NCBI RefSeq assembly: GCF_029227855.1
Contig: NZ_CP074356.1
Length of the DNA stretch: 64,000 nucleotides
Source: Escherichia coli
GTDB lineage: Bacteria; Pseudomonadota; Gammaproteobacteria; Enterobacterales; Enterobacteriaceae
Strand: one strand, 5' to 3'
Within the stretch, counting starts at the first letter, position 1; each line of letters opens with the position of its first letter. The notes beneath the pieces were generated by a model. That model saw only the letters and a list, made by a program, of their open reading frames with translations. It had not been told where the DNA came from and did not search any database. Of this stretch, positions 10,645-48,754 are shown piece by piece. A program made the translations under genes and the position numbers.

Positions 10645-12213
10645 TTAGCGTGCCGGCTGAGTAGTCGTGGAAGACTGCTCAAAGTGATAGCGACCGGTTT
10701 TCAGGCTGCTTGGGCCGAGGCGTGCAAACTTGAACATTAAGAACAATTCTGCCACCAGGAACAGGGTATACAGGCCGCAAATCAGCACCATTGAGAAGAT
10801 GAGATCGCCTGCGGTCAGTGACGAGTTCGCCACAGCTGTCGGCAGCACTTCACCGATAGCCCACGGTTGGCGGCCATATTCAGCCACAAACCAGCCCGCT
10901 TCTACAGCAATCCACGGCAGCGGAATACCGTACAGCGCGGCGCGCAGCAGCCATTTTTTCTCGCCAATGCGGTTGCGGATGACACTCCAGAAAGAGAGCG
11001 CGATGATTGCCAGCAGTAGGAAGCCACACGCCACCATGATACGGAACGCGAAGTACAGCGGCGCTACACGCGGAATGGAGTCTTTGGTTGCCTGTTGAAT
11101 CTGCGCTTCAGTCGCATCAGCCACGTTTGGCGTATAGCGTTTCAGCAGCAGACCGTAACCGAGGTCTTTCTTCATGCTATTGAACTGGTCACGAACCGCC
11201 TGGTCGGTAGAACCAGAACGCAGTTGCTCGAGCAGAGAGTACGCCTTCATCCCGTTACGAATGCGTTCTTCATGCTGCACCATCAGTTCTTTCAGGCCGA
11301 TAACTGGAGTATCCACGGAACGCGTTGCAATGATGCCCAGCGCGTAAGGGATCTGGATCGCAAATTTGTTCGTCTCCTCTTCCTGATCAGGAATGCCGAA
11401 CAGAGTAAAGGCAGCAGGCGCAGGTTGCGTTTCCCACTCGGCTTCAATAGCAGCCAGTTTGGTTTTCTGCACGTCGCCCATTTCGTAACCAGATTCATCA
11501 CCCAGAACAATAACAGACAGAACGGCAGCCATACCGAAGCTGGCAGCGATAGCAAAGGAGCGTTTAGCGAAGGCGAAGTCACGACCTTTCAGCATATACC
11601 ATGCGCTGATACCGAGGATGAACATCGCGCCAGTCACATAACCAGACGCTACAGTGTGAACGAATTTCACCTGAGCAACCGGGTTAAGCACCAGCTCGGA
11701 GAAGCTCACCATCTCCATACGCATAGTTTCAAAGTTGAAATCGGACGCGATTGGGTTTTGCATCCAGCCGTTCGCAACCAGAATCCACAGTGCGGACAGG
11801 TTTGAACCGAGCGCCACCAGCCAGGTGACACACATATGCTGAACTTTACCCAGACGATCCCAACCGAAGAAGAACAGACCTACAAAGGTGGATTCGAGGA
11901 AGAAGGCCATCAGACCTTCGATTGCCAGCGGCGCACCGAAGATATCCCCTACATAGTGGGAATAGTAAGACCAGTTAGTCCCGAACTGGAACTCCATGGT
12001 CAGACCGGTAGCCACACCCAGAGCGAAGTTGATACCAAACAACTTGCCCCAGAACTTGGTCATATCTTTATAAATCTGTTTGCCGGAAAGGACGTAGACC
12101 GTTTCCATAATGGCCAGCAGGAACGCCATACCGAGCGTCAGTGGCACAAAAAGGAAGTGGTACATCGCGGTCAAGGCAAACTGTAAGCGCGACAGTTCGA
12201 CTATATCTAACAT
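10645..12213 (-). CDS. cydA: Cytochrome bd-I ubiquinol oxidase subunit I
   Basis: Starts [28 protein letters not shown]; about 522 aa. Confidence 0.95.
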
Positions 12214-12950
12214 CATGACTCCTTGCTCATCGCATGAAGACTCCGAGAGTGAACCCCGTTAGAAAGGGTCACACGCATGCCCCAATACAAAATTATTTGC
12301 TCGCCTCTATCGTTGCCATTTCATCAAAAGAGGAAAAGACAATGATAAAAAAGTTACAAATATGTTAATGAATAAACCAAATTGATCCCGTAATTATATT
12401 ACGCCGCAAAATCCTTACAATAAACATGTTTTTATTGAGCAAATTTGCATTTTTCGACAGTGATCAATTTATAGCGAAATTGTCACGATCTCACCAATTT
12501 GATCTACGACAATTTATCGTGTTTTGCAGATTTTTTTCAAGAATTAAAAATTGATTTATATCAAAACCAACCAAATATGTTAATTGTGTATAAACCATAG
12601 ATCATTGGTGATTTTATTGTTAATTTATTGTGAAATATTTATGCAACACAATTATTACAATGAAAAGGTATAGATAAAAAACCAGTGTTTTATTTAACAG
12701 AACCGCCTTATCCACTTTTTATAATACCAATTGATTAGATTAGCCAATTTGTTGCTATTTTACATAACATATTTTTATCAAAGTTAATTGATTGTTGCGT
12801 TTATGAGCACCGGCCGTAAGCCCGTTATGTTATTGTTTCATTAGTAATAATCACTTAAATGTATCGATGAAACAGGTATGACTTAGCGGGAGTGATTGTT
12901 TCTGAGTGAACAGAGACCACTTTCGCCTGATAAATGAAAAATGAGCGATT
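12214..12950 (-). promoter_or_regulatory. Long AT-rich cydAB upstream regulatory region
   Basis: About 0.7 kb non-coding AT-rich DNA upstream of cydA; the cyd promoter is known to be complex (FNR, ArcA, H-NS). Confidence 0.6.
12551..12564. promoter_or_regulatory. Consensus FNR binding site
   Basis: TTGATTTATATCAA is a perfect TTGAT-N4-ATCAA palindrome, about 340 bp upstream of the cydA ATG. Confidence 0.6.
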
Positions 12951-13018
12951 TTTGCAAGTTAGTTTTTCTATAGCCGAGTACGCTCAGCGCCTCGCTTGAT
13001 TACAATGAGGTTGCTGCT

Positions 13019-13963
13019 ATGAGTCCTGATAATATCAGTTCTGCTGTCAATCGCTTCTCAGGTTGGCCATCTAATGATCCTCTAAAAACAGATAAAGAAT
13101 CAATGACATCACCCATGACTGTGCAGGTAATAAAGATGATTGCCGCCATCCTTGACCCACATCGGATAGTCGTTGGAATCGATACACTTTATACAACGCA
13201 GCGCGAAACATTTACCTCAGAGAGTCAACAGCTCATTGAATCAGCATTGCAAACACTTCATGTGATGAATTTAAATAACCTGGAAACAAATCTCGATGAG
13301 GAAGGTCACTATCTGGCTTTTGGATATAACGTTGACACTCCTGACAGAATAACCGTTTCTGCTTATAATGAAAAAAAGCCTGGCTGCTATGGCCAATGTC
13401 TTTTAATACAGGATGACGAAACAGACTTATTTAACCTGATAAAAGTTAAAATTTTTGAAGCCAGGCATAATTATGTCGCTCAATTGATGAGCGATCCGGA
13501 ATTTATGTTCAAATTTAGTTATAGCGCTCAACAAAATAGATTAGAACCTCATCTTCTGGTTCCCACTTATTTCCCTCTAAAAACAAACGAACCGGTTACG
13601 CAAGAGGATGTACTGTTACTTTATCGTTTCTTTAAAATGGATGGTGATTTTAATATATTAACATCAGATGAATACATGAGTATCATGACACCTCTAATGA
13701 AGTGTGAGCGTAGCATCCACGACCACAACAGGTATGTGACGGGCAAAGATACCCTTCTTCTGGACTATCCTCCTTCTGGTAACCAGATATATTTCCATAT
13801 TTTTCCTGACGAATCAGCAACACTAGTCCTTTATTTTTCAAACAATGACATTGAATGTTTCGTCTTTGAAAGAGATATTCCGAGCCAGTATCGCTTTTTC
13901 AAAATGTTTACCAATCTGGCACTGGTTATTGATCAGTTAACCGATGCCAATCAAATACTTTAA
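13019..13963 (+). CDS. Hypothetical protein, AT-rich, no recognisable family
   Basis: 314 aa ORF, soluble, no motif I can recognise; codon usage and base composition unlike flanking core genes. Confidence 0.6.
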   Translation: MSPDNISSAVNRFSGWPSNDPLKTDKESMTSPMTVQVIKMIAAILDPHRIVVGIDTLYTTQRETFTSESQQLIESALQTLHVMNLNNLETNLDEEGHYLAFGYNVDTPDRITVSAYNEKKPGCYGQCLLIQDDETDLFNLIKVKIFEARHNYVAQLMSDPEFMFKFSYSAQQNRLEPHLLVPTYFPLKTNEPVTQEDVLLLYRFFKMDGDFNILTSDEYMSIMTPLMKCERSIHDHNRYVTGKDTLLLDYPPSGNQIYFHIFPDESATLVLYFSNNDIECFVFERDIPSQYRFFKMFTNLALVIDQLTDANQIL

Positions 13964-14043
13964 TTTTTATATATTCCCTGTGGCAAATATTGCTAAACAA
14001 TGCCCGGGGATTAATTTTTATTACTCACGGAAAGATTTAAATA

Positions 14044-14466
14044 ATGATCCCATCTCAAATCTCTTTCAACACCCTTCCTGTCAATGCAACATACGCTTCA
14101 GAGACAACAGTTGACACACAAAAATTCTCTGACATCCTCTACTCAGCGGGGTGTTCCCTAAAGGATCTGGCTTATTTGAGCAGATGTCTGGCATCAATAC
14201 ATCCGACTATCGCCAAAAACATTTATGAAACAGAAAATCTCAGCGATCAAAAATTACTACATATTGATTGCCGTAGTACAAATGAAATCAAGATAAATAT
14301 CTTTTTTGGTCGACAACGAGAAGGATTAATTGAAATTAGTTCTGACACAGTCATTTTTTCGATACTGTCTTCATTGATTGACTCCACCATTTCTAAATTT
14401 CAACACCAAAACCCCGTTAACGGTTCTGTAAATCCTGACCTATTGTATGAGGATTATACTGATTAA
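14044..14466 (+). CDS. Hypothetical protein, AT-rich, no recognisable family
   Basis: 140 aa ORF 80 bp downstream of the 314 aa ORF, same strand; likely co-transcribed. Confidence 0.55.
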   Translation: MIPSQISFNTLPVNATYASETTVDTQKFSDILYSAGCSLKDLAYLSRCLASIHPTIAKNIYETENLSDQKLLHIDCRSTNEIKINIFFGRQREGLIEISSDTVIFSILSSLIDSTISKFQHQNPVNGSVNPDLLYEDYTD

Positions 14467-15013
14467 ATCCCTCCTGTCGCGAAAAATGGCCTGCGTTATT
14501 GCCAGACGTAATAAAACTTTTGATTAACGTTTCTCGTACTGGTAGCACCCTCATGTACTTTTCTTTTTTACGAAAAATCAAAAGAGCTAACAAAGGTCAT
14601 AATTCGCATGAATCATTAATTATTTGTTATTTTCAACATTATTTTTACATTAAGCAGAGATGAATTGCAGTGAAATTCGACTTAACTTTTATGAAATGCA
14701 TTTACTCATGGCTAAAGCCACGTCACAAAAATGCAAATTAGAAGTTGATCACAATTATCTCAATACATCAAATCAAGTTAATTTTAAAAATTTAACATTC
14801 ATGACATCAGTTGACATAACACACTGAATTAAAATGAGAATTTGAAAACACACTTTAAACAATCATTTCCCGAAAGACATTTTGAAAATAGATCAATTGC
14901 AACATTACGGTCAGATAAAGACACTCCTGTGATATTAAACCTGTGCCGTTATGAACGGCCATAAATACGACGTGTGTAACTTATTTTACTCTCTGTCTTA
15001 CAAAGGATTACCC

Positions 15014-15463
15014 ATGAAGAAAGCAACACTTGTGATTGGCGTTATTGGCGCGGACTGCCATGCAGTAGGCAATAAAGTTCTGGACCGCGTTTTTAGCAAC
15101 CATGGCTTCAGAGTCATTAATCTGGGCGTAATGGTCAGCCAGGACGAATATATTGATGCTGCCATTGAAACTGGTGCTGACGCGATTGTCGTCTCCTCTA
15201 TCTATGGGCATGGCGATATCGACTGTCTGGACATGCGCGAACGCTGCATCGAGCGTGGACTGGGGGACATCCTGCTCTATGTGGGCGGTAACCTGGTGGT
15301 CGGAAAACATGACTTCGCTGACGTGGAAACCAAATTCAAAGAGATGGGATTTGATCGCGTCTTTGCCCCAAGTCATGACTTAGAAGATGTTTGTCAGCTG
15401 ATGGCCCACGATATCAACCAACGTCATGACGTTGATACTCGTATTCTTGAAGAGGCAATCTGA
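15014..15463 (+). CDS. glmS: Glutamate mutase sigma (S) subunit, B12-binding
   Basis: [21 protein letters not shown]: the DxHxxG cobalamin-binding motif of methylaspartate mutase S; AGGA RBS 7 nt upstream; start chosen at internal ATG of the track ORF. Symbol follows clostridial glutamate mutase usage, not glucosamine-6-P synthase. Confidence 0.85.
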
Positions 15464-16851
15464 TGCAAATCGTCTCTGTCGATATTGGATCGACGTGGAC
15501 CAAAGCAGCCCTCTTCGCCCGGGAGGGGGACGCGTTAACGTTGGTTAACCACGTACTGACCCCAACCACCCCCCATCATCTGGCGAAGGGGTTTTTCTCC
15601 AGTCTGAACCTGGTGTTAAACGTAGATGATGCCCTCCCCCTGTTTAACAGCGGTGAGGTTGCATTGAAGTATTCCTCCTCTGCCAAAGGTGGGCTGGCGG
15701 TTGCCGCAATGGGATTGGTGCCTTCTATCACCCTGGAAACCGCGAAAGTAACCGCTCACTCTGCGGGGGCTAAAATTGCGCAATATTACGCCTACAAGCT
15801 GAACCGCCGTGATATCCAGGCACTGGAAGAAACGCAGCCCGATATTCTCTTGTTCACCGGCGGCACCGACGGCGGAGAAGAAAGCTACGGCCTGAATAAC
15901 GCCCGTGTGCTGGCAGAATCCAAACTCGACTGCGCCATTATTTATGCCGGAAACCGGGATATTCAGGACAAGGTGCAGGAGATCCTAGGGCATAAAGACC
16001 TGACCATCGTCGACAACGTTCTGCCCGATCTTGACCATCCGAACCCTTTAGCTGCACGCCAGGCTATCTGCGACATATTCCTTAAACGCATCGTTAAAGG
16101 GAAAGGGCTGGATGTCGTTGTTGATAAAACAGGCGAAGAACCAATGCCGACACCGTGGACAGTCTTTGAACTGGTTAAGGCAATCAGTAATGTCGATCAC
16201 AGCTGGAAAGAGTTCATGCTGATCGACATGGGCGGCGCAACCACCGATGTCTATTCCGCCTGTGCCAACACGCTCTCGCCCGACACCGTTTTACACGGCG
16301 TACCGGAACCCTTCGTGAAACGGACGGTGGAAGGCGATCTGGGAATGCGCGTCTCGGCAATGGTGGTTGGTGAAAGTGCGAAAGAGTTAGTCAATGTGAA
16401 TTTTGCTCAGCAACCCGCACAGCTGGACGCTTTTTATCATTACCTCCGTCATCTAGTCGCTCATCCCGACTACTTACCCGCGAATTCAGAAGAAAAATAT
16501 TTCGATACCGTCCTGGCCGGACTGTGTGTGGGTTATGCCACCGAAAGACATGCGGGCACCAAAAAAGAGGTCTGCACCTGCGTCGGCAATGTCGATTTAC
16601 AGATGGGACGTGACCTGACAACCGTGCGTAAAGTCGTCGGATCCGGCGGATGGCTCTCGCGTGCCAGTCAGTTCGATATGCATCACTGGTTGAAATACCG
16701 CAAGTTAAACGACGACGGTAAACGCATTCTCTTACCGACCGAATTTGAATATTACCGCGATTCCCGGGGGCTATTACCATTGCTGGCAAACGTCGCCAGA
16801 GTCGATCCGCTGGCCGCCGCGCGCACCAGTATTCAATGCTTAACCCTATAA
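15463..16851 (+). CDS. glmL: Glutamate mutase L component (MutL/GlmL reactivase-like protein)
   Basis: 462 aa ORF between S and E subunits as in clostridial operons; ATGA overlap with the S subunit. Confidence 0.75.
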   Translation: MQIVSVDIGSTWTKAALFAREGDALTLVNHVLTPTTPHHLAKGFFSSLNLVLNVDDALPLFNSGEVALKYSSSAKGGLAVAAMGLVPSITLETAKVTAHSAGAKIAQYYAYKLNRRDIQALEETQPDILLFTGGTDGGEESYGLNNARVLAESKLDCAIIYAGNRDIQDKVQEILGHKDLTIVDNVLPDLDHPNPLAARQAICDIFLKRIVKGKGLDVVVDKTGEEPMPTPWTVFELVKAISNVDHSWKEFMLIDMGGATTDVYSACANTLSPDTVLHGVPEPFVKRTVEGDLGMRVSAMVVGESAKELVNVNFAQQPAQLDAFYHYLRHLVAHPDYLPANSEEKYFDTVLAGLCVGYATERHAGTKKEVCTCVGNVDLQMGRDLTTVRKVVGSGGWLSRASQFDMHHWLKYRKLNDDGKRILLPTEFEYYRDSRGLLPLLANVARVDPLAAARTSIQCLTL

Positions 16852-16869
16852 CAATTAAGGCTGCAATCA

Positions 16870-18315
16870 ATGGAACTTCGAAATAAGAAATTAACCCATG
16901 ACGAATTCATGACCGAGCGGCAACAGGTACTGAAAACCTGGGAAACCGGCAAGGATGTTGAAAACTTTGAAGATGGCGTTAAATACCAACAAACCATTCC
17001 TGAGCATAAACGCTTCTCTCTTGCGCTGTTGAAAGCAGACAAGGAAGGTAAAACCCTTAGCCAACCGCGCGCAGGTGTGGCGCTGATGGACGAACACATC
17101 GAACTACTGAAAACACTACAAGAAGAGTGCGATCTGCTGCCGAGCACTATCGATGCATATACCCGTCTGAATCGGTACGAAGAAGCGGCTGTAGGGATTA
17201 AAAAATCCATCGAAGCCGGAACCTCTAAACTGAACGGTTTGCCGGTAGTTAACCATGGCGTCGCAGCTTGCCGTCGCCTCACCGAAACCCTGCAAAAACC
17301 GCTACAGATCCGCCACGGCACGCCAGATGCGCGTCTGCTGGCTGAAATCTCGATGTCCAGCGGCTTTACCAGTTACGAAGGCGGCGGCATTTCCTACAAC
17401 ATTCCGTATGCCAAACGCGTAACGCTGGAAAAATCGATCCGCGACTGGCAGTACTGCGACCGTTTAATGGGGATGTATGAAGAACACGGGATCCGCATCA
17501 ACCGCGAACCGTTTGGCCCACTAACAGGTACGCTGATCCCGCCGTTTATCTCGCACTCTATCGCGATAATCGAAGGCTTGCTGGCGCTGGAACAGGGTGT
17601 GAAATCTATCACCGTTGGTTATGGACAGGTCGGCAGCCTGACGCAGGATGTTGCGGCGATCCAGTCTCTGCGTGAACTTGCACACGAATATTTTCAGAGC
17701 TATGGCTATACCGACTATGAATTAAGTACCGTGTTTCACCAGTGGATGGGCGGCTTTCCGGAAGACGAATCGAAAGCGTTCGCTATTATCTCCTGGGGCG
17801 CAGCCGTCGCGGGGATGTCTGGTGCCACCAAAGTCATCACCAAAAGCCCGCACGAAGCCTGGGGTATCCCGACTGCCGCTGCCAACATTCAGGGGCTGAA
17901 AGCCTCCCGCCAGATGCTCAACATGGTCAACGAGCAGAAATTCCCGCCGTGCCCTGCGGTTGAACTGGAAATTGAACTGATTAAGAGCGAGGTTCGCGCG
18001 GTACTGAATAAAGTGTTCGAACTGGGTAATGGTGATATTGCGCGCGGTACGGTGCTGGCATTTGAAGCGGGCGTACTGGATGTGCCGTTTGCGCCAGCCG
18101 CCTGCAACGCGGGCAAAATTCTTCCGGTCCGTGACAACACCGGCGCGATACGCGTACTGGAAGCCGGAGCCGTTCCATTGCCAAAAGATATTCTCGACCT
18201 CCACCACGATTACGTTGCTGAACGCGCACGCTTTGAAGGACGCCAACCGACATTCCAGATGGTTGTAGATGACATCAATGCTGTATCCCACAGTAAATTA
18301 ATAGGAAGACCATAA
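16870..18315 (+). CDS. glmE: Glutamate mutase epsilon (E) catalytic subunit
   Basis: 481 aa, size and gene order match methylaspartate mutase E. Confidence 0.8.
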   Translation: MELRNKKLTHDEFMTERQQVLKTWETGKDVENFEDGVKYQQTIPEHKRFSLALLKADKEGKTLSQPRAGVALMDEHIELLKTLQEECDLLPSTIDAYTRLNRYEEAAVGIKKSIEAGTSKLNGLPVVNHGVAACRRLTETLQKPLQIRHGTPDARLLAEISMSSGFTSYEGGGISYNIPYAKRVTLEKSIRDWQYCDRLMGMYEEHGIRINREPFGPLTGTLIPPFISHSIAIIEGLLALEQGVKSITVGYGQVGSLTQDVAAIQSLRELAHEYFQSYGYTDYELSTVFHQWMGGFPEDESKAFAIISWGAAVAGMSGATKVITKSPHEAWGIPTAAANIQGLKASRQMLNMVNEQKFPPCPAVELEIELIKSEVRAVLNKVFELGNGDIARGTVLAFEAGVLDVPFAPAACNAGKILPVRDNTGAIRVLEAGAVPLPKDILDLHHDYVAERARFEGRQPTFQMVVDDINAVSHSKLIGRP

Positions 18316-19556
18316 TGAAAATAAAACAGGCCCTTTTTACCGCTGGCTACTCCTCATTCTATTTCGATGACCAGCAGGCGATAAAAAACGGAGCGGGTCA
18401 CGACGGTTTTTTTTATACCGGGGAGCCAGTAACACAGGGGTTTAACGCCGTACGTCAGGCCGGGGAGTGCGTATCGGTACAGTTGATTCTGGAAAACGGC
18501 GCGGTCGCCGTAGGTGACTGTGCTGCCGTACAGTATTCCGGGGCAGGCGGTCGCGATCCACTGTTCCTCGCGGAGCACTTTATTCCGTTCCTCAACGACC
18601 ATATCAAGCCATTACTGGTAGGCCGCGATGTGGATGTTTTCCTGCCGAATGCCCGTTTCTTCGACAAATTGCGTATTGACGGCAACTTGCTGCATACCGC
18701 CGTGCGCTACGGATTATCACAGGCTCTGCTTGATGCTACCGCGCTGGCAACCGGCCGTCTGAAAACTGAAGTGATCTGTGATGAATGGCAGTTGCCACGC
18801 GTGGCGGAATCCATTCCATTATTTGGTCAGAGCGGGGACGATCGATATATCGCCGTCGATAAGATGATCCTTAAGGGCATCGACGTGCTGCCCCATGCGC
18901 TGATTAATAACGTCGAAGAGAAGCTGGGCTTTAAAGGTGAAAAACTGCGCGAATATGTCCGCTGGTTGTCGGATCGCATTCTGAGCAAGCGCACCAGCGC
19001 ACGCTACCACCCAATCCTGCACATCGATGTATACGGCACTATCGGTCTGATCTTCGATATGGATCCGCTTCGCTGTGCGCAATACATCGCCAGCCTGGAA
19101 AAAGAAGCGCAAGGCCTGCCGCTCTACATTGAAGGGCCGGTCGATGCCGGTAACAAGCCCGATCAAATTCGCCTGCTGACCGCGATTACCAAAGAGCTGA
19201 CGCGCCTCGGTTCCGGCGTGAAACTAGTGGCCGATGAATGGTGTAACACCTACCAGGATATTGTTGATTTCACAGATGCCGCCAGTTGCCACATGGTGCA
19301 AATCAAAACCCCGGATCTGGGCAGTATTCACAACATCGTCGATGCAGTTCTTTATTGCAACAGCCACAGCATGGAAGCGTACCAGGGCGGCACCTGCAAT
19401 GAAACTGATGTCAGTGCCCGCACCTGTGTCCACGTCGCCCTTGCCGCTCGCCCCATGCGTATGCTGGTAAAACCAGGGATGGGCTTTGACGAAGGCCTCG
19501 ATATCGTCTTCAACGAAATGAATCGTACTATCGCGCTGTTGCAGGCTAAGGATTAA
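18315..19556 (+). CDS. mal: Methylaspartate ammonia-lyase (beta-methylaspartase)
   Basis: 413 aa; N-terminus MKIKQALFTAGYSSFYFDDQQAIKNGAGHDGF matches the enolase-superfamily methylaspartase N-terminus; start overlaps the glmE stop. Confidence 0.85.
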   Translation: MKIKQALFTAGYSSFYFDDQQAIKNGAGHDGFFYTGEPVTQGFNAVRQAGECVSVQLILENGAVAVGDCAAVQYSGAGGRDPLFLAEHFIPFLNDHIKPLLVGRDVDVFLPNARFFDKLRIDGNLLHTAVRYGLSQALLDATALATGRLKTEVICDEWQLPRVAESIPLFGQSGDDRYIAVDKMILKGIDVLPHALINNVEEKLGFKGEKLREYVRWLSDRILSKRTSARYHPILHIDVYGTIGLIFDMDPLRCAQYIASLEKEAQGLPLYIEGPVDAGNKPDQIRLLTAITKELTRLGSGVKLVADEWCNTYQDIVDFTDAASCHMVQIKTPDLGSIHNIVDAVLYCNSHSMEAYQGGTCNETDVSARTCVHVALAARPMRMLVKPGMGFDEGLDIVFNEMNRTIALLQAKD

Positions 19557-19559
19557 CAA

Positions 19560-20930
19560 ATGGCTCGTTCTTTTAAAGTCTTATCGCCAACGGCAATCCT
19601 CGGGTATGGATTCCCGGAAGAGAGCTTCCGCAAAGCGATGGCAGAATCGCCCGATCTGATCGCCGTTGATGCAGGCTCTTCCGATCCTGGCCCCCACTAC
19701 CTCGGGGCGGGCAAACCGTTTACCGATCGCGCAGGGGTCAAGCGCGATCTGCGCTATATGATCACCGCAGGCGTGCAAAATAATATACCGGTGGTGATCG
19801 GAACGGCCGGCGGTTCTGGTGCCGCTCCACACCTGGAGTGGTGCCGAGAAATAATTCATGAGATTGCCCGGGAAGAGCACCTCTCGTTCTCGATGGCGTT
19901 GATCCCGGCAGACGTTGACAAAGCCATCGTCCACCAGGCGCTGGATAACGGCAAAATCACGGCGCTGGAGTTTGTCCCGCCGTTAACCCACGACGCGATT
20001 GACGAAAGTACGTATATCGTTGCGCAAATGGGCATCGAACCCTTCCAGCGGGCGCTGAAAGAAGGCGCGCAAGTGGTGCCGGGCGGGCGCGCTTACGACC
20101 CGGCCTGCTTTGCTGCGCTTCCGATCATGCAAGGCTTTGATGAAGGTCTGGCGCTTCATTGTGGGAAAATCCTTGAATGCGCGGCAATCGCCGCAACGCC
20201 CGGCTCAGGCTCTGACTGTGCGATGGGCATCATTGATGACAACGGCTTTACGCTGAAGACATTTAATCCGAAGCGTAAATTTACCGAAACGTCAGCAGCT
20301 GCACACACACTGTATGAGAAATCCGATCCCTACTTCCTGCCTGGACCTGGCGGCGTGTTGAACCTGAAAGGCTGCACATTTAAAGCGGTCAATGACAGCG
20401 AAGTGTACGTCAGCGGTTCTAAGCATGAAGAAACGCCGTATTCCCTGAAACTGGAAGGTGCGCGACGGGTGGGCTTCCGCTGTCTGACCATCGCAGGAAC
20501 GCGCGACCCGATCATGATCGCCGGGATCGATAAAATCATCGATGAAGTCAAAACCAGCGTTTCGCGTAACCTGTCGCTCGACGATGACAGCATTCACATC
20601 AATTTCCACCTGTACGGCAAAAACGGGGTGATGGGCGACCATGAACCGATGCAAACTGCCGGGCATGAGCTGGGGATTGTCCTAGATGTAGTTGCGCCGA
20701 CCCAGGAAATTGCCAACAGCGTTTGCTCGCTGGTGCGCTCTACTATGCTGCACTACGGCTATGAAAACCGCATCGCTACCGCAGGCAACCTGGCGTTCCC
20801 GTTCTCCCCTTCTGATATCCAGGGCGGGCCGGTATACGAATTTTCCATATATCACCTGATTGAAGCCAACGACGCTCTGCGTTTTGATTTCCATATTGAA
20901 CAGGTGACGCCAGAAGGAGTTCAGGCATGA
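19560..20930 (+). CDS. Conserved protein of unknown function (possibly DUF1446/AtuA-like)
   Basis: 456 aa, starts 4 nt after mal; family assignment is from memory of N-terminal pattern only. Confidence 0.5.
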   Translation: MARSFKVLSPTAILGYGFPEESFRKAMAESPDLIAVDAGSSDPGPHYLGAGKPFTDRAGVKRDLRYMITAGVQNNIPVVIGTAGGSGAAPHLEWCREIIHEIAREEHLSFSMALIPADVDKAIVHQALDNGKITALEFVPPLTHDAIDESTYIVAQMGIEPFQRALKEGAQVVPGGRAYDPACFAALPIMQGFDEGLALHCGKILECAAIAATPGSGSDCAMGIIDDNGFTLKTFNPKRKFTETSAAAHTLYEKSDPYFLPGPGGVLNLKGCTFKAVNDSEVYVSGSKHEETPYSLKLEGARRVGFRCLTIAGTRDPIMIAGIDKIIDEVKTSVSRNLSLDDDSIHINFHLYGKNGVMGDHEPMQTAGHELGIVLDVVAPTQEIANSVCSLVRSTMLHYGYENRIATAGNLAFPFSPSDIQGGPVYEFSIYHLIEANDALRFDFHIEQVTPEGVQA

Positions 20931-21244
20931 AACAGTCAATTGTCTCACTGGCGCAAGTCATTCGTTCGAAAAATGCCGGACCTTACGAACTGGTTTTAGA
21001 TATTTTATTTAAAACGAAAGAAAACTATGAGCGAGTTAAATCATCAGGGCAATTAACCCCAGAACTGATTGCGCGCTTATATCATGTTGAACCTGACTTT
21101 ATTCACCGTATTGTCTGGTTTGATCCTTCTAACGCAGTAAAAATCGTCATGCCACGAGATATTATCTCCGGGAATGTAGGTGACAATGATGTCTATGGTG
21201 CACAGCAACATGCACCTTTATTAAATATGAGTTTCGATTTGTAA
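20927..21244 (+). CDS. Small conserved protein of unknown function (possibly DUF4387-like partner)
   Basis: 105 aa, ATGA overlap with the preceding gene. Confidence 0.5.
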   Translation: MKQSIVSLAQVIRSKNAGPYELVLDILFKTKENYERVKSSGQLTPELIARLYHVEPDFIHRIVWFDPSNAVKIVMPRDIISGNVGDNDVYGAQQHAPLLNMSFDL

Positions 21245-21327
21245 AAATCCGAATACTTTTAGCCAACTGACATCCCGTCACTTATTGCAGTTCAACACTT
21301 CAGCTATTTGTAAGGTTGTAATAGCAG

Positions 21328-21359
21328 GTAGATGCCTGAATCTCTATTCAGGCATCTAC
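21328..21359 (+). terminator. Perfect 14 bp inverted repeat; candidate terminator or operator between operon and transporter gene
   Basis: GTAGATGCCTGAAT-ctct-ATTCAGGCATCTAC followed by T-rich ttctcctgattctgattt. Confidence 0.55.
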
Positions 21360-21404
21360 TTCTCCTGATTCTGATTTATCGCCGTGCACCTGATGGAGGA
21401 AAAA

Positions 21405-22685
21405 ATGAAGAAAATAAGTTTAACCACGATGATTCTTTTGGCGCTGGTACTTGGAATGATTATCGGCGTAGTGCTCAATAACACTGCTTCACCGGAAACC
21501 GCAAAACTCTATGCGCAAGAAATATCGATATTCACGACGATTTTCTTACGACTGATAAAAATGATTATCGCTCCGTTAGTGGTCTCTACCCTGGTGGTAG
21601 GTATAGCTAAAATGGGCGATGCCAAAGCCCTTGGTCGTATTTTTTCTAAAACACTCTTTTTATTTATTTGCGCCTCATTGCTGTCAATTGCCTTAGGCTT
21701 GATAACAGTAAATTTCTTCATGCCAGGCACAGGAATTAATTTTGTTGCACACGGAGCCGAAACCACCGGAGTGGTCGCGTCAGAACCCTTTACGCTAAAA
21801 GTATTTATTTCGCATGCTTTCCCCACCAGCATTGTCGATGCCATGGCGCACAATGAAATTTTGCAAATCGTGGTGTTCTCAATTTTCCTCGGCTGTAGCC
21901 TGACGGCGATTGGCGAGAAAGGCAGCGCCATCGTTCACGCCTTAGATTCGCTGGCACATGCCATGTTAAAGCTCACTGGCTACGTCATGCTCTTCGCTCC
22001 CCTGACCGTATTCGCTGCTATTTCAGCATTGATTGCTGAACGAGGACTGGCAGTTATGGTGAGCGCCGGGATCTTTATGGGTGAATTTTATTTCACCATG
22101 TTATTACTTTGGGTGCTGCTTATCGGTCTGGCCATCGTTTATGTTGGCCCCTGCATCAGACGCCTGACCCGCGCCCTTTCGGAACCCGCCCTGCTGGCAT
22201 TTACCACATCCAGTTCTGAAGCGGCTTTTCCGGGAACGCTTGAAAAACTGGAGCAATTTGGCGTTTCCCCAAAAATTGCCAGTTTTGTCTTACCCATTGG
22301 CTACTCATTTAATCTCGTTGGATCAATGGCCTACTGCTCCTTCGCCACAGTTTTCATCGCCCAGGCCTGCAATATCCATTTATCCATCGGTGAGCAAATC
22401 ACCATGCTGTTGATCCTGATGTTGACCTCGAAAGGAATGGCTGGCGTACCACGCGCCTCAATGGTGGTTATCGCCGCCACGCTCAACCAGTTCAATATTC
22501 CGGAAGCGGGGCTGATCTTGCTGATGGGCGTTGATCCGTTCCTTGATATGGGGCGTTCAGCGACAAACGTCATGAGCAACGCAATGGGCGCTGCGATGGT
22601 GAGTCGGTGGGAAGGCGAACATTTCGGCGAGGGCTGTCGGGGTAAAGCATTAAAACCCAATGAATCGAACGTTGCTCTGCCCTGA
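21405..22685 (+). CDS. Dicarboxylate/amino acid:cation symporter (GltP/DctA family), probable glutamate uptake
   Basis: About 426 aa polytopic protein; GGAGGA RBS 5 nt upstream of ATG 21405 (track ORF starts at an upstream GTG). Confidence 0.8.
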   Translation: MKKISLTTMILLALVLGMIIGVVLNNTASPETAKLYAQEISIFTTIFLRLIKMIIAPLVVSTLVVGIAKMGDAKALGRIFSKTLFLFICASLLSIALGLITVNFFMPGTGINFVAHGAETTGVVASEPFTLKVFISHAFPTSIVDAMAHNEILQIVVFSIFLGCSLTAIGEKGSAIVHALDSLAHAMLKLTGYVMLFAPLTVFAAISALIAERGLAVMVSAGIFMGEFYFTMLLLWVLLIGLAIVYVGPCIRRLTRALSEPALLAFTTSSSEAAFPGTLEKLEQFGVSPKIASFVLPIGYSFNLVGSMAYCSFATVFIAQACNIHLSIGEQITMLLILMLTSKGMAGVPRASMVVIAATLNQFNIPEAGLILLMGVDPFLDMGRSATNVMSNAMGAAMVSRWEGEHFGEGCRGKALKPNESNVALP

Positions 22686-22792
22686 GGGGGATCTTAAGCA
22701 ATCAGAAGCCAATGACTACGCATTTTTATAAGCCGGATCATGAAGTTAGACGGCAATTAAGTAAAACTAACGTTTAAGGTGAAAAGTGAAAT

Positions 22793-24445
22793 ATGTCCAA
22801 ACCATTTATCTGGCAAGAACCGTTTCTACAAAATAAAGACGGTACAGAATATACATTAATTAGCGATCAACATATTACAGTAACGGAATTAGACGGCGAA
22901 GAAGTAATAAAAATCGCTCCTGAAGCATTAACGCTGCTTGCCCGGCAGGCATTTTATGAAGCCTCTTTTTTCTTACGTTCCGCTCATTTGCAACAGGTCG
23001 CCAGCATTCTTAACGATCCGCAGGCCAGTAGTAATGATAAATACGTTGCGTTGCAGTTATTACGTAATGCTGAAGTCTCAGCAAAAGGGGTATTACCCAA
23101 CTGTCAGGATACCGGCACCGCAACTATTGTTGCCAGTAAAGGGCAACAGATATGGACGGGAGGTAACGACGCTGAAGCCTTAAGCAAAGGCATTTACACC
23201 ACTTTTCAGGAAAATAATCTGCGCTTTTCACAAAATGCGCCACTGGATATGTTTACCGAAGTCAATACGCAAACCAATCTCCCGGCGCAGATTGATATCA
23301 GCGCCGTCGCTGGTGATGAGTACCATTTTCTCTGTATTAATAAAGGGGGCGGCTCTGCCAATAAAGCCGCGCTTTATCAGGAAACCAAATCCCTATTGCA
23401 ACCAGAAAAACTGACCGCATTTTTAATCGAAAAAATGAAATCGCTGGGCACCGCTGCCTGCCCGCCTTACCACATCGCCTTTGTCGTCGGAGGACTTTCA
23501 GCCGATCAAACCTTAAAAGTTGCCAAGCTGGCCTCAACGAAATATTACGACAATTTGCCCACCAGCGGAAACGAGCAAGGACAAGCATTCCGTGATATTG
23601 AGCTGGAAAAAGTATTGCTCGAGGCCAGTCAGCAATTTGGTATTGGTGCGCAATTTGGGGGTAAATATTTCGCTCATGATATTCGCGTCATTCGTCTGCC
23701 GCGTCACGGTGGCTCTTGCCCGATAGCTATGGCGCTCTCCTGTTCTGCGGATCGCAATATCAAAGCAAAAATTAACAAGCACGGTATCTGGCTGGAAAAA
23801 CTCGAACACAATCCGGGGCAATATATTCCAGCCTCACTGCGGGAAGAAAATCACGCGCAACATGTACAGCTGGATCTAAACCGTCCGTTGCGTGACGTGA
23901 TGCAGGATCTCGCCAGATTACCGGTAGGCACCCGCGTGTCGTTAAGTGGTCCCATCGTAGTGGCGCGCGATATCGCCCACGCCAAAATAAAAGCGCGGCT
24001 GGATAGCGGCGAACCGATGCCGGATTACCTGAAGCATCATATTGTCTATTACGCTGGCCCGGCGAAAACACCGGAGAACATGGCCTGCGGTTCACTGGGT
24101 CCAACCACGGGCGGTCGAATGGACGGTTATGTCGATACCTTCCAGGCGGTTGGCGGCAGTCTGGTGATGTTATCGAAAGGTCACCGCAGCCAGCAGGTCA
24201 CCGATGCCTGTCACAAACATGGCGGCTTCAATCTGGGAAGTATTGGCGGTGCAGCTGCGTTACTGGCGCAAGAATATGTCAAAAGTCTGCGTTGCCTGGA
24301 ATACCCGGAGCTGGGTATGGAAGCGGTGTGGATGATGGAAGTGGAAAATCTGCCCGCATTCATCCTGGTAGATGATAAAGGCAATAATTTCTTTAGTCAG
24401 TTTGAGCAGCAACACCGCTGCGCCAGTTGCCCTGCGGGACATTAA
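22793..24445 (+). CDS. fumD: Class I (Fe-S) fumarate hydratase family enzyme, probable mesaconase
   Basis: 550 aa; N-terminus closely parallels FumA ([31 protein letters not shown]); linkage to glutamate mutase/methylaspartase as described for the E. coli O157:H7 mesaconase FumD. Confidence 0.8.
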
Positions 24446-24454
24446 GGAAAATGA

Positions 24455-25057
24455 ATGGAAGCGCGAATTTCAACTGAACGGCATGTGCAGCGCCAGCAGA
24501 AATTGAAGGAACAGGTCGATACGCGCATCGCGGCGGCGATAGAGAAAAAAGGGATTTTGATTGTTTTCACCGGCAATGGCAAAGGGAAATCCACTGCCGC
24601 GTTTGGTACTGTGACGCGCGCGGTGGGTCATGGCAAAACGGTGGGGGTTGCGCAGTACATCAAGGGGCAATGGGACAACGGCGAATACAACCTTCTCCAG
24701 CCGCTGGGGGTTGAGTTTCATATTATGGGAACCGGTTTTACCTGGGAGACACAGAACCGGCAAGCGGATATCGACGCGGCGAAAGAGGTCTGGTCGGAAA
24801 GCAAACGGATGCTGGCTGACAAGCGTTACGACTTAGTGGTGCTTGATGAGCTGACCTATATGCTGGCTTACCATTATCTGGATACCGAAGAAGTGATCGC
24901 TTCTCTGCAAAACCGCCCGGCACAACAAAGTGTCATTGTCACCGGACGCGGTTGCCACAGTCAGATATTAAAAATGGCGGATACGGTCAGCGAAATCCGC
25001 CCCGTCAAACATGCTTTTGATAACGGCATTCAGGCGCAGCCGGGTATCGACTGGTAA
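24455..25057 (+). CDS. ATP:cob(I)alamin adenosyltransferase (CobA/BtuR paralog)
   Basis: 200 aa; GILIVFTGNGKGKSTAAFG P-loop and strong collinearity with E. coli BtuR. Confidence 0.85.
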   Translation: MEARISTERHVQRQQKLKEQVDTRIAAAIEKKGILIVFTGNGKGKSTAAFGTVTRAVGHGKTVGVAQYIKGQWDNGEYNLLQPLGVEFHIMGTGFTWETQNRQADIDAAKEVWSESKRMLADKRYDLVVLDELTYMLAYHYLDTEEVIASLQNRPAQQSVIVTGRGCHSQILKMADTVSEIRPVKHAFDNGIQAQPGIDW

Positions 25058-25060
25058 TAA

Positions 25061-25093
25061 CTGCGCCTGGCATCCCGCCAGGCGCAGGTTTTA
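25061..25093. terminator. Bidirectional terminator hairpin between convergent cobA-like and LysR genes
   Basis: CTGCGCCTGGC-atccc-GCCAGGCGCAG then gtttta. Confidence 0.6.
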
Positions 25094-25996
25094 CATCTCC
25101 TGCGGTACAACCGATTTCGCCAGCAACCATTCACGAAATTGCTGCAAGTGCGGTGAGTCAGACTTCTCTTCCTGCCACGTCATAATAAAACGATTACCGG
25201 TACGAATAGGCACATCACAGGGGATCACCATATCGCCACTATCCAAATCATGTTGAATAGCGAAACGTGGTAACAGCGCCACGCCGAGATTAGAGCGCAC
25301 GGCGGCAATCAGCATTGAAAGCAAATCGAAACGTGGTCCGTTGTTGACCAGTGGACTGCTAACGCCAGATAAAGCAAACCACTCTTCCCAGCCAGTAATA
25401 CGGGTGCTTTGATGCAGAAGTGGTAACTCAGTAAGCAGTTCTGCCACTGACAGTTTTTGATCGGACATTGCAAGCAAACTGCCGCTGCATACCGGCAAAA
25501 TCTCCTCATCAAAGAGATATTCTACTTCCGCCCAGGGCGCGCAAAAATTTTCGCGCATAATGACAGCATCGTACTCCCGATTAAGAAAATCGCCGTTATT
25601 AGCTAAAGAGTGAATATTAACAATAATATCGGGATGTAACTTTGTGAATTCATGTAAATTTGGGATTAACCAGTGGGTACTAAACGTAGGATTCACGGCA
25701 AGTTCAATAACCTGAACCGTAGGCTGCCAGGTCATAATAGTATTGGTATCGCGTTCCAGCTTATTTAATGTTTCTTTTACTATCCCCAGGTAATACTTCC
25801 CTGCATCATTAAGAAAAATACGTTTTTTAGAGTGTGAAAATAACGGAGTATGTAAAAATTCCTCCAGCGCACTCACTTGTCTGAATACAGCACTTTGGGT
25901 TAACGCTAACTCCTCTGCCGCTCTGGTATAACTTTCATAACGTGCGACGACCTCAAAAGTCACCAGCAGCTCCGTTTTAGGTATTTTTCCTCGCAT
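25091..25996 (-). CDS. LysR-family transcriptional regulator
   Basis: N-terminal HTH (TRAAEELALTQSAVFRQVSALE) and LysR substrate-binding domain; start at ATG 25996 with RBS; divergent from the RtcB-like gene. Confidence 0.85.
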   Translation of the reverse strand: MRGKIPKTELLVTFEVVARYESYTRAAEELALTQSAVFRQVSALEEFLHTPLFSHSKKRIFLNDAGKYYLGIVKETLNKLERDTNTIMTWQPTVQVIELAVNPTFSTHWLIPNLHEFTKLHPDIIVNIHSLANNGDFLNREYDAVIMRENFCAPWAEVEYLFDEEILPVCSGSLLAMSDQKLSVAELLTELPLLHQSTRITGWEEWFALSGVSSPLVNNGPRFDLLSMLIAAVRSNLGVALLPRFAIQHDLDSGDMVIPCDVPIRTGNRFIMTWQEEKSDSPHLQQFREWLLAKSVVPQEM

Positions 25997-26585
25997 AATT
26001 CCGTCCGTGAAAAAATAACAATTCAAAAATTATTTTATAAAAAACAGTAGCACTAATGAATATCATAATTCAAATAAACAAACCAGTCAGCTATATGTCT
26101 AACCAGGAAAATAAAGTGACAATAATCCTAAAACAGGAATTTCACCTCAGTTATCCGCATGCAATACTTTAAAGCTATTATTGCAAGAATATTATTCATA
26201 TACATGAATATACTCTAAATAAGTCAAGTTGCAGGAAGGGAACAAATAATGAATTTCCAGAAGCTTACATAAGTAAGTGACCTGAGTGAGCGAACATCGA
26301 TGCAGCACATGCAACTTGAATTATGACAAGTATACAATGATAAATTTATATACCCTATGTTATATATTATCTATGTCCGGTTAAATTGAATGAGTCATGG
26401 CCTTAAAAGACTTCACAAAAGATAATTCCTCTTTAACAATAAGCCAGATTTACCACTTGTAAAACTTGCTATCGCCACATACACTACGCGCGTTTTCTTT
26501 CCCTTTTGCTGGCTGCTGACCGGAAAGACAAAATTACCCTCGCAATACAGGGGGTTGTTTAACGTCTATATTTCAGGACAGCGTT

Positions 26586-27983
26586 ATGCATCATCTTTCA
26601 AGGCTTGATAAAGCCTTTCTGCGCAAAGGGATCCAACTTTCCCGCGCCAACAATATTGTTTCATTATCTCGTCCATCAGGTGCCAGTGCCCGCGTACTGC
26701 TGCCGGACGAACTGCCGCTGGAAGAAAAAGCAGTAACACAACTGCTTGATTTTGCAGAAGTGAAGCTACCAGACCACCCAGGTTATGTGCGCCAGACGTG
26801 CGCGACGCCAGATTTTCATCCCGGCAATGGCGTCCCCGTTGGCGCGGTGGTGGCCTCAACGCCGGATTTAGTCATTCCCGCCGCCATCGGCACCGATATT
26901 TCTTGTGGCATGCGGCTGCTGACGACCGGATTAACACTTGAGCAAGCCGAAGCGCATAAAGACATCATCGCTCAGCGGTTAACGCAAGTGCTGCTGCAAA
27001 ATGAGCGCGATGTTCCGTTATCCGCACAGGCGTTCACTGCGCTTTTTGATGGCGGACCGGCAGATTGCGTGTCGACCTTGCCATCAGCAGGTCTCTGGAC
27101 ACGCACGAATATCCCCCGAATGGTACAAGAGATTGACTGCTGCATTGGGCTTAACGAGCATAACAGTCATTCGCGTTATGCCCCACCCGCCCTGCTGGCA
27201 ACGGACCGCGCATTACTCCGCGATCCTTGTCTGGGTACGCCGGGTTCAGGTAATCATTTTATTGAACTTCAGGTCGTTGATAGCGTGGTTGATCGCCATG
27301 TAGCCTGGCAACAAGGGCTGAAAACAGGCGATATTGTGGTGATGATCCACAGTGGATCGCGAGATGTTGGCTTTTACGTCGGAAGACGCTGGATGGATCG
27401 CGCCCGTGCTGAATGGCCCACCGGACATAAACATCCACAAAGCGGGTTATATGGTCTGGCAGGCGGACTGGCGGAGGAATATCTACAAGCGATAGGAATG
27501 GCTGCGCGTTACGCGTGGTTAAATCGCGTCACAATTGCCGAAATGGTGCGCGTATGTCTCGCCAATCTCTTTCATCAGGACAATTCGCATCTGGTGGTGG
27601 ATGTGCCGCATAACATCATCCTTCGCGAGCATGAAATGAATATTCATCGCAAAGGTGCAACACCGGCACGAGTGGGCGATCTGGCATTAATCCCCGGTTC
27701 AATGGGCGATTATTCGTGGCTTGCAGTCGGTTGCGGCAACCCGGAGTGGCTGTGGTCATGCAGTCACGGAGCAGGACGCAGCCAGCGTCGACAGGCCATG
27801 CGCTCAAGCGCGACTGAAGAGTCAACGCTGCCGTGGCAATGCGTCACATTGCGTGAAGAACGACGTCTTGAAGAAGCGCCAGCGGCTTATAAAGATATTG
27901 GTCCGGTTATCGAAGCCCAACAAGAAGCCGGATTAATTCAACCAGCGGTCAGATTTCGACCGTGGTTAACGTTTAAGGGGTAA
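26586..27983 (+). CDS. RtcB-family RNA ligase paralog (stand-alone)
   Basis: 465 aa with RtcB signature blocks DISCGMRL, GSGNHFIE, MIHSGSRDVG, HRKGATPARVGDLALIPGSMG, CSHGAGR, APAAYKDIGPV; all metal/GMP-binding Cys/His positions appear conserved. Confidence 0.8.
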   Translation: MHHLSRLDKAFLRKGIQLSRANNIVSLSRPSGASARVLLPDELPLEEKAVTQLLDFAEVKLPDHPGYVRQTCATPDFHPGNGVPVGAVVASTPDLVIPAAIGTDISCGMRLLTTGLTLEQAEAHKDIIAQRLTQVLLQNERDVPLSAQAFTALFDGGPADCVSTLPSAGLWTRTNIPRMVQEIDCCIGLNEHNSHSRYAPPALLATDRALLRDPCLGTPGSGNHFIELQVVDSVVDRHVAWQQGLKTGDIVVMIHSGSRDVGFYVGRRWMDRARAEWPTGHKHPQSGLYGLAGGLAEEYLQAIGMAARYAWLNRVTIAEMVRVCLANLFHQDNSHLVVDVPHNIILREHEMNIHRKGATPARVGDLALIPGSMGDYSWLAVGCGNPEWLWSCSHGAGRSQRRQAMRSSATEESTLPWQCVTLREERRLEEAPAAYKDIGPVIEAQQEAGLIQPAVRFRPWLTFKG

Positions 27984-28066
27984 CTGAAATGATAAATGGC
28001 CTGCGGTTCTCACGCAGGTCAAATCTGGTATCTGCGTAAGCTAACAAACTTGTTTATCAACAATCT

Positions 28067-28088
28067 CAGGCCATCCGAAGATGGCCTG
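28067..28088. terminator. Hairpin between convergent RtcB-like gene and mngB
   Basis: CAGGCCATC-cgaa-GATGGCCTG, 9 bp stem. Confidence 0.5.
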
Positions 28089-28127
28089 AAATTATTGCCC
28101 CCCTTAGATACACTTTTAGCGCAATAA

Positions 28128-43990: not shown

Positions 43991-45274
43991 ATGGCTGATA
44001 CAAAAGCAAAACTCACCCTCAACGGGGACACAGCTGTTGAACTGGATGTGCTGAAAGGCACGCTGGGTCAAGATGTTATTGATATCCGTACTCTCGGTTC
44101 AAAAGGTGTGTTCACCTTTGACCCTGGCTTCACTTCAACCGCATCCTGCGAATCTAAAATTACTTTTATTGATGGTGATGAAGGTATTTTGCTGCACCGC
44201 GGTTTCCCGATCGATCAGCTGGCGACCGATTCTAACTACCTGGAAGTTTGTTACATCCTGCTGAATGGTGAAAAACCGACTCAGGAACAGTATGACGAAT
44301 TTAAAACTACGGTGACCCGTCATACCATGATCCACGAACAGATTACCCGTCTGTTCCATGCTTTCCGTCGCGACTCGCATCCAATGGCAGTCATGTGTGG
44401 TATTACCGGCGCGCTGGCGGCGTTCTATCACGACTCGCTGGATGTTAACAATCCTCGTCATCGTGAAATTGCCGCGTTCCGCCTGCTGTCGAAAATGCCG
44501 ACCATGGCCGCGATGTGTTACAAGTATTCCATTGGTCAGCCATTTGTTTACCCGCGCAACGATCTCTCCTATGCTGGTAACTTCCTGAATATGATGTTCT
44601 CCACGCCGTGCGAACCGTATGAAGTTAATCCGATTCTGGAACGTGCTATGGACCGTATTTTGATCCTGCACGCTGACCATGAACAGAACGCCTCCACCTC
44701 CACCGTGCGTACCGCTGGCTCTTCGGGGGCGAACCCGTTTGCCTGTATCGCAGCAGGTATTGCTTCACTGTGGGGACCTGCGCACGGTGGTGCTAACGAA
44801 GCGGCGCTGAAAATGCTGGAAGAAATCAGCTCCGTTAAACACATTCCGGAATTTGTTCGTCGTGCGAAAGACAAAAATGACTCTTTCCGCCTGATGGGCT
44901 TCGGGCACCGCGTGTACAAAAATTACGACCCGCGCGCCACCGTAATGCGTGAAACCTGCCATGAAGTGCTGAAAGAGCTGGGTACCAAAGATGACCTGCT
45001 GGAAGTGGCTATGGAGCTGGAAAACATCGCGCTGAACGACCCGTACTTTATCGAGAAGAAACTCTACCCGAACGTCGATTTCTACTCTGGTATCATCCTG
45101 AAAGCGATGGGTATTCCGTCTTCTATGTTCACCGTGATCTTCGCTATGGCACGTACCGTTGGCTGGATCGCCCACTGGAGCGAAATGCACAGTGACGGTA
45201 TGAAGATTGCCCGTCCGCGTCAACTGTATACAGGATATGAAAAACGCGACTTTAAAAGCGACATTAAGCGTTAA
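43991..45274 (+). CDS. gltA: Citrate synthase (type II)
   Basis: 427 aa, [36 protein letters not shown]. Confidence 0.97.
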
Positions 45275-48740: not shown

Positions 48741-48754
48741 TTAAGGAAATGAAA

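Follow-up and report, generated by a model that had tools for sequence, protein, structure and literature searches.

A probable glutamate fermentation (methylaspartate pathway) cluster, with genes for a predicted citramalate lyase, between cydA and mngB of Escherichia coli

This article concerns the interval between cydA and mngB in a stretch of 64,000 nucleotides from Escherichia coli (assembly GCF_029227855.1, contig NZ_CP074356.1), which is referred to below as “the window.” At this locus, where K-12 has only a short spacer, the window carries genes for a vitamin B12-dependent route that starts from glutamate, together with genes of a different kind on either side of them. An original prediction, made from the letters alone, had drawn attention to this island; here we identify its genes, compare them with known systems, and weigh what they are likely to be for.

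Genes of the cydA-mngB interval

In E. coli K-12, the cydA-mngB spacer is 846 bp long. By blastn against K-12 MG1655 and a K-12-like strain, homology to the window stops at position 12584 and restarts at 28125, and the segment between these points (12585–28124; 15,540 bp) stands in place of 475 bp of that spacer. The accessory island that the original prediction placed here, absent from K-12, is therefore real; the limits proposed for it, 12950–28060, do fall inside the inserted segment, although the true limits are those given above. The left core flank is cydA (10645–12213, minus strand), as annotated in an identical genome. The right core flank is mngB (28128–30761, minus strand), assigned by NF007331 (1495 bits), and the right junction at 28125 lies 3 bp short of its stop codon (28128). 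E. coli JNEC-KY178 is the same as the window over 17 kb at full identity, and its RefSeq annotation carries the same genes.

Gene assignments were judged against the curated cut-offs of NCBIfam. The pathway genes begin on the plus strand with glmS (15014–15463), encoding the B12-binding small subunit of glutamate (methylaspartate) mutase (NF002612, 253 bits; cut-off 110), in which the DxHxxG motif is present as DCHAVG. This is followed, on the same strand, by glmL or mutL (15463–16851; NF040745, 506 bits; cut-off 475), for the accessory/reactivating protein of the mutase, and by glmE (16870–18315; TIGR01503, 863 bits; cut-off 390), for its catalytic subunit, which matches the epsilon subunit in PDB 1CCW and 6H9E at 631–635 bits. 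The start codon of the next plus-strand gene, mal (18315–19556), overlaps the glmE stop codon; its product is 3-methylaspartate ammonia-lyase (TIGR01502, 544 bits; cut-off 286), and aligns full-length with the methylaspartate ammonia-lyase structure 1KKO (893 bits). K-12 is without these genes, and both the mutase and the methylaspartase assigned by the original prediction pass the cut-offs of their hidden Markov models.

The two plus-strand genes that follow are those that matter most for the end of the pathway. The first, cmlA (19560–20930), belongs to the AtuA/DUF1446 family and matches chain A of PDB 9ERQ and 9EVF (E 4e-289) over residues 1–456 of 456, at ~90–91% identity; the second, cmlB (20927–21244), is a DUF4387 gene that overlaps cmlA by 4 bp and matches chain B (E 5e-57). 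These chains were deposited as “Citramalate lyase, subunit A (cmlA)” and “subunit B (cmlB),” and the title of 9EVF, released on 2025-10-08, is “Citramalate lyase - ADP - pyruvate complex” (ADP, adenosine diphosphate). The AlphaFold model of CmlA superimposes on 9EVF_A with a template modelling score (TM) of 0.93 at 91% identity, and no other PDB fold was retrieved for it at E<0.001. By comparison, the Pfam AtuA model (PF07287) gives a weak match (65 bits, E 6e-18, residues 63–393). The enzyme is described in a preprint from Berg's laboratory as a Raoultella planticola enzyme, and it is only there that citramalate cleavage is stated, the titles of the PDB entries implying it; the same preprint reports that engineered E. 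coli shows mesaconate-dependent growth with just a fumarase and CmlAB. Earlier, Kronen and Berg (2015; PMC4682846) had noted the DUF1446 gene 3' of mal in O157:H7 and considered the fate of citramalate there unclear.

Gene order provides a second line of evidence. An uninterrupted run of glmS-glmL-glmE-mal-cmlA-cmlB, with the gene order unchanged, recurs in Yersinia enterocolitica, in a contig that bears the label Aeromonas sp., in a Riflebacteria genome, and in two further contigs derived from metagenomes. Across related loci the orthologues of CmlA are 62–89% identical, which makes the protein as conserved as GlmE and Mal, and this conserved glm-mal-cmlAB order gives independent support for CmlAB as the citramalate lyase. 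No CitDEF-type lyase was found nearby by Pfam in the five related loci examined, and the CitD/CitE/CitF and CitC/X/G families (Pfam and NCBIfam) have no match among the island open reading frames (ORFs). We conclude that the AtuA-family and DUF4387 genes probably encode citramalate lyase CmlAB, to which cleavage of citramalate to pyruvate and acetate can be ascribed by homology. The claim that the island lacks a citramalate lyase gene has to be withdrawn in view of the ~90% identity of these ORFs to the deposited CmlA and CmlB, and the fallback offered with it, that the last step might come from the unassigned genes, turns out well, as those genes are cmlAB. With cmlAB in the island, every enzyme needed to reach pyruvate and acetate is accounted for on paper.

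Two side observations belong here. Existing records are misleading: in those of strain Sakai, the name “3-methylaspartate ammonia-lyase” is given to cmlA and “acyl-CoA synthetase” to cmlB, and the RefSeq pipeline PGAP gives “AtuA family” and “DUF4387.” In addition, non-enterobacterial glm-mal-cmlAB clusters have a gene for a ~315-residue protein with a Walker A motif directly 3' of cmlB (11712–12665, 11677–12618, and 11698–12654 of our loci L007, L008, and L009, respectively). Two copies from distant phyla are 62% identical; the protein belongs to no family in Pfam or NCBIfam and shows PDB similarity at the level of the P-loop only, and the window has no homologue. It might be linked to the ADP seen in 9EVF.

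Downstream of cmlB, again on the plus strand, lies the gene of a DAACS-family dicarboxylate/amino acid:cation symporter (21405–22685). The GltP and DctA models score it at 302–312 bits, below their equivalog cut-offs; the DAACS family of the original “glutamate-type symporter” stands, and its substrate comes from context. The gene is kept 3' of cmlB in the Yersinia locus and in locus L011, and on the strength of this position we presume it to be a glutamate importer. The next gene, fumD (22793–24445, plus strand), encodes a class I fumarase with mesaconase activity (NF011921, 1281 bits; cut-off 1060). Its product is 98.4% identical to ECs0757 of Sakai, a mesaconase whose kinetics with mesaconate have been published, with the highest kcat/Km on that substrate (PMC4682846). 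The plus-strand series ends with a cobO/cobA-type gene for an ATP:cob(I)alamin adenosyltransferase (24455–25057; TIGR00708, 247 bits; cut-off 168). The assignments originally made for GlmS, GlmL, GlmE, the ammonia-lyase, the class I fumarase, and CobA all pass NCBIfam cut-offs, and the family models agree that a B12-dependent route from glutamate through 3-methylaspartate and mesaconate to (S)-citramalate is encoded.

Convergent to cobO is a gene for a LysR-type regulator (25091–25996, minus strand), recognised by GcvA-like models of such regulators with scores below cut-offs; homologues with 64–82% identity occur in the Yersinia and L011 clusters. Between the two genes is a GC-rich hairpin (25061–25087; inverted repeat I16) with an 11-bp stem, 9 GC pairs, and a T-tail, which is likely a bidirectional terminator. 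The operon is tightly packed and co-directional, with overlaps at glmS/glmL, glmE/mal, and cmlA/cmlB and remaining gaps of 3–160 bp. All pathway genes (glm, mal, fumD, symporter, CobO, and LysR) are intact and their products are 97.6–100% identical to the Sakai proteins, with ratios of nonsynonymous to synonymous substitution rates (dN/dS) of 0.00–0.21 against Sakai. These genes are evolving under purifying selection, contrary to what would be expected of dead cargo.

Less can be said about control. The leader or promoter region of the operon (14467–15013, plus strand) is an AT-rich stretch of 547 bp, as read from the sequence. No riboswitch, for B12 or otherwise, was found with Rfam at E<=1 over 11500–29000. 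Control of the operon by FNR was considered and rejected: the only candidate, at 14745, has 2 mismatches, and such sites are no more frequent across the window than chance predicts. Similarly, predictions of sigma-70 promoters and terminators are at the level of shuffled sequence, the cobO/lysR hairpin being the only convincing one.

Flanks, other modules, and layouts of the locus

The left end of the segment is an AT-rich spacer (12585–13018; GC ~35%), of which 12585–12854 is also found in strains that have a TPR-protein gene at the locus (in one such strain, homology runs to 12854). A pattern search found a perfect FNR box (TTGATTTATATCAA, 12551–12564) in the cydA control region, 20 bp inside the left junction; the island therefore starts just past a retained cyd regulatory site. 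The control region upstream of cydA (12201–12584) is ~80% identical to K-12 and cydA itself 98–100%; by sliding identity, agreement with K-12 upstream of cydA drops to 90% and then to 73%. On the right, the 3' 1–1.5 kb of mngB (28125–29500) is 83–90% identical to K-12, and the gene is 95–100% identical further in. In this 3' part, most E. coli genomes agree with the window at only ~86%, and this divergent end suggests that a divergent allele was imported beside the island. A second divergent patch was seen in the ybgD-ybgQ-ybgP-ybgO fimbrial region (45000–50500), which is 72–92% identical to K-12 among surrounding genes at 96–100%.

The operon is accompanied by genes that did not figure in the original list, namely, the LysR regulator, two orphan ORFs, and an RtcB-family gene. 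The GC content of the core operon is ~51–55%, as in the flanking core genes, and ~35% is reached only in the orphan-ORF module and in the spacer between lysR and rtcB. The orphan ORFs, both on the plus strand, encode 314 residues (13019–13963) and 140 residues (14044–14466), and searches of Pfam, NCBIfam, PADLOC, and PHROGs gave no match for the pair. Among 5.8 billion proteins, relatives of the 314-residue ORF form no more than 5 clusters, and all contigs examined that carry relatives of the pair are Escherichia-like. The 140-residue ORF always adjoins its partner in the E. coli copies examined. With dN/dS of 0.43–0.47 for the longer and 0.22 for the shorter, these ORFs evolve faster than the neighbouring enzymes. 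A homologue of the longer ORF, 65% identical, was seen beside cydA in an Escherichia-like contig from which both the glm operon and the mng genes are missing, so the pair must be regarded as a separate module. The idea that the 314-residue ORF is the conserved ~315-residue P-loop gene that follows cmlB elsewhere was rejected, as the two have no similarity.

At the other end of the segment lies an orphan gene for an RtcB-family RNA ligase of 465 residues (26586–27983, plus strand; dN/dS 0.18). It scores below the cut-offs of the RtcB models (TIGR03073, 167 bits; cut-off 272), matches the PH1602 and Thermus RtcB structures in PDB (E 1e-40 to 1e-43), and the metal and histidine motifs DxxC, GNHF, HSGSR, PHN, and SHGAGR can be read in its translation. 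There is no rtcA, rtcR, or prfH partner nearby, the neighbours being lysR and mngB. To judge by its sequence, it is a divergent, full-length, archaeal-type paralogue and a separate module. Between the convergent rtcB and mngB is a hairpin (28058–28097; inverted repeat I17, 18-nt arms). Between lysR and rtcB is an AT-rich filler of 463 bp (26015–26477), defined by homology to Sakai and to E. coli 1532WA, which stops at 26014 and restarts at 26478; derivation of this filler from hut sequence was rejected for want of any similarity. The AT-rich spacer 5' of rtcB also contains a 25-nt imperfect inverted repeat (26209–26334) that folds modestly better than shuffled sequences (z = -2.6) and has no Rfam match. 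Overall, the island is a composite of three unrelated modules: the orphan ORF pair, the operon with its regulator, and the orphan rtcB.

How widespread these arrangements are can be judged from 5426 complete E. coli genomes. In this collection, cmlAB was found in 1125 genomes, roughly one in five, in line with the published cluster frequency in E. coli of 26.5% (PMC4682846). Intact rtcB is present in 289, with remnants cut down to 41–57 bp in ~400 others, Sakai included; the hut block described below occurs in 144, and the rtcB-mngB junction that marks the exact layout of the window in 133. The layouts themselves are varied. Apart from the K-12 type with its 846-bp spacer, there are strains with a TPR-protein gene instead of the island, the window with the island next to mngB, Sakai and AHB30 with the island against sucD and only remnants of rtcB, and E. 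coli 1532WA, in which the island is followed by an 8.7-kb hut block, rtcB, and sucD. Finally, in E. coli 14EC033 an IS1 deletion runs from within the symporter gene, whose 3' part is lost, through fumD and cobO and takes out most of lysR, which shows that the island is still decaying in some lineages. The hut block of 1532WA (17267–25008 of our locus L005) lies between lysR and rtcB and encodes a HAL-like ammonia-lyase, hutG, hutI, hutD, a permease, and hutU; it would deliver histidine-derived glutamate straight into the methylaspartate route.

Known systems and competing explanations

It is important to state that this cluster is not new. Any novelty implied by the original prediction must be given up, because Kronen and Berg (2015; PMC4682846) already described the cluster, reported how often it occurs in E. 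coli, and showed that FumD acts as a mesaconase, with Kato and Asano (1997) before them, and the cluster is present in O157:H7. The window has the features of the published enterobacterial cluster that can be checked in sequence: GlmS, GlmE, and GlmL; Mal after glmE; FumD; the DUF1446 gene; a transporter; CobA; and LysR. In the cluster of Sakai (ECs0755–ECs0767; PMC4682846), the same 12 genes stand in the same order, from the 314-residue ORF to lysR, with cydA on the left; nucleotide identity with the window is 98.3% over 16 kb, and the 12 proteins are intact and 93.6–100% identical. The right-hand sides differ: Sakai abuts sucD, is without mngR-mngA-mngB, and has rtcB as short remnants only, whereas the window has kept mngB and mngA, has an intact rtcB, and carries the 463-bp filler after lysR.

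Comparison with more distant systems is equally instructive. The clostridial methylaspartate pathway (Clostridium tetanomorphum, Clostridium cochlearium) is alike in its chemistry as far as citramalate and in its end products, and its GlmS, GlmL, GlmE, and Mal are homologous. However, where the window has a single-chain class I fumarase, FumD, as mesaconase and CmlAB as predicted citramalate lyase, the clostridia use the two-subunit MesAB and a citrate-lyase-like CitDEF complex with CitCXG activation genes. In addition, unlike the clostridial system, the cluster of the window includes genes for a transporter, an adenosyltransferase, and a LysR regulator of its own, and its host is a facultative anaerobe. 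The closest likeness for the last step is the CmlAB of 9ERQ and 9EVF, of which the window proteins, matched full-length, are the E. coli orthologues. Pseudomonas AtuA, the founder of PF07287, is more remote: CmlA shares this Pfam family only weakly, has no atu genes nearby, and, unlike AtuA, needs a separate DUF4387 subunit.

Taking these comparisons together with the gene assignments, we consider it very likely that the segment holds the known enterobacterial cluster for glutamate fermentation by the methylaspartate pathway, as one of three modules in a recombining, hypervariable locus. In the pathway that we propose, glutamate would be taken up by the DAACS symporter and converted by the adenosylcobalamin-dependent GlmSE to (2S,3S)-3-methylaspartate, with GlmL keeping the mutase active and the cluster-encoded CobO adenosylating its cofactor. 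Mal would then release ammonia from 3-methylaspartate to give mesaconate, FumD would hydrate mesaconate to (S)-citramalate, and CmlAB would cleave (S)-citramalate to pyruvate and acetate; the conserved LysR-type regulator presumably controls the cluster. These steps do not stand on equal footing. That of FumD has been established by experiment for a protein 98.4% identical, that of CmlAB is predicted from a ~90% identical homologue, and the others are predicted from family membership; we infer the substrate of the symporter, the target of the regulator, and flux through the pathway in E. coli.

Several points weigh against this interpretation. The E. coli CmlAB assignment draws on ~90% identity to proteins that carry the name in a deposited structure and on one preprint about the Raoultella enzyme, and should be read as a prediction; in addition, 9EVF holds an ADP ligand along with pyruvate. 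The symporter and LysR score below equivalog cut-offs, and the specificity presumed for them comes from their position. E. coli is not known to synthesise corrinoids de novo, and the pathway would thus be dependent on external B12. There is also an experimental point: in O157:H7, Kronen and Berg found expression of the cluster in no condition, and they observed neither growth of the strain on glutamate nor any activity of methylaspartase (PMC4682846).

This last result also speaks for the notion that the cluster is cryptic in E. coli, that is, silenced or decaying cargo that has no current physiological role. The leader and both flanks, at ~35% GC, are by inference typical targets of H-NS, and deletion variants are known, such as the IS1 loss from symporter to lysR in 14EC033 and the rtcB remnants in ~400 genomes. 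Nevertheless, we regard cryptic cargo as unlikely, given that the pathway genes are intact in both the window and Sakai at the low dN/dS quoted above, that 1121 of the 1125 carriers keep at least 80% of cmlAB, and that methylaspartase activity was found to be widespread in enterobacteria (earlier work by Asano and Kato, as related in PMC4682846). One might instead suppose that the true substrates are C5-dicarboxylates (mesaconate, citramalate, methylmalate), handled by the DAACS symporter, FumD, and CmlAB, with the mutase and ammonia-lyase as a side entry. The DctA models for C4-dicarboxylate carriers do score the symporter as well as GltP, mesaconate gives FumD its highest kcat/Km (PMC4682846), and the engineered E. 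coli of the preprint needed nothing but a fumarase and CmlAB for mesaconate-dependent growth. Against this, glmS to cmlB form a translationally coupled block that is kept across phyla, sometimes with no transporter or fumarase adjacent, and the cluster has its own B12 adenosyltransferase; a C5-dicarboxylate system is, in our view, very unlikely. A methylaspartate cycle of the haloarchaeal type, in which mutase and ammonia-lyase would serve anaplerosis via mesaconyl-coenzyme A (CoA) and not catabolism, has the GlmSE and Mal steps in common with the window and next to no chance of being correct here. That cycle runs on through CoA-dependent enzymes, and the CoA-transferase, mesaconyl-CoA hydratase, and methylmalyl-CoA lyase are absent among the island ORFs, which encode a free-acid mesaconase and a predicted citramalate lyase instead.

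As for the origin of the segment, the AT-rich borders around a core of 51–55% GC and the patchy presence among strains would suit a classical integrase-mediated genomic island or mobile element at a specific site. We searched for the corresponding signatures and, as originally predicted, found none: no ORF matched an integrase or transposase among the families searched, and there are no small ORFs of interest; no transfer RNA (tRNA) gene lies within 10000–33000, the nearest tRNA array being ~9.5 kb away; and flanking direct or inverted repeats amount to nothing beyond chance-level 14–30-mers. Moreover, the junctions are not sharp, with flank identity decaying gradually, the right neighbour varies between mngB (window) and sucD (Sakai), and in Yersinia and on contig L011 the operon occupies other chromosomal positions, there too lacking mobility genes. 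An integrase-type island is therefore highly improbable. The gradual decay of identity on both flanks and the occurrence of the same operon in at least four layouts argue for recombination rather than site-specific insertion, and fit homologous recombination at a hypervariable cydA-sucD/mngB locus. The acquisition mechanism, originally called unclear, indeed has no mobility signature, although it can now be narrowed in this way.

What the cluster may mean for E. coli

A broader view of the locus would make cydA-sucD/mngB a recombination hot spot that gathers amino-acid catabolic modules, with the window having lost or never gained hut, and with the orphan pair and RtcB functionally tied to the island. 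We consider this unlikely. If it were true, hut and the operon together would form a self-contained route by which a species generally regarded as hut-negative could turn histidine and glutamate into pyruvate and acetate, and the orphan pair and RtcB would have roles, for example, in regulation or in RNA repair under the inducing condition, and would not be passengers.

Returning to the glutamate fermentation cluster that we favour, its last enzyme has been identified through structures, 9EVF having been released in 2025, and a practical correction of annotation follows. Where an “AtuA family protein” and a “DUF4387” protein are encoded beside mal, they are best annotated as the probable citramalate lyase CmlAB, which would complete the pathway.

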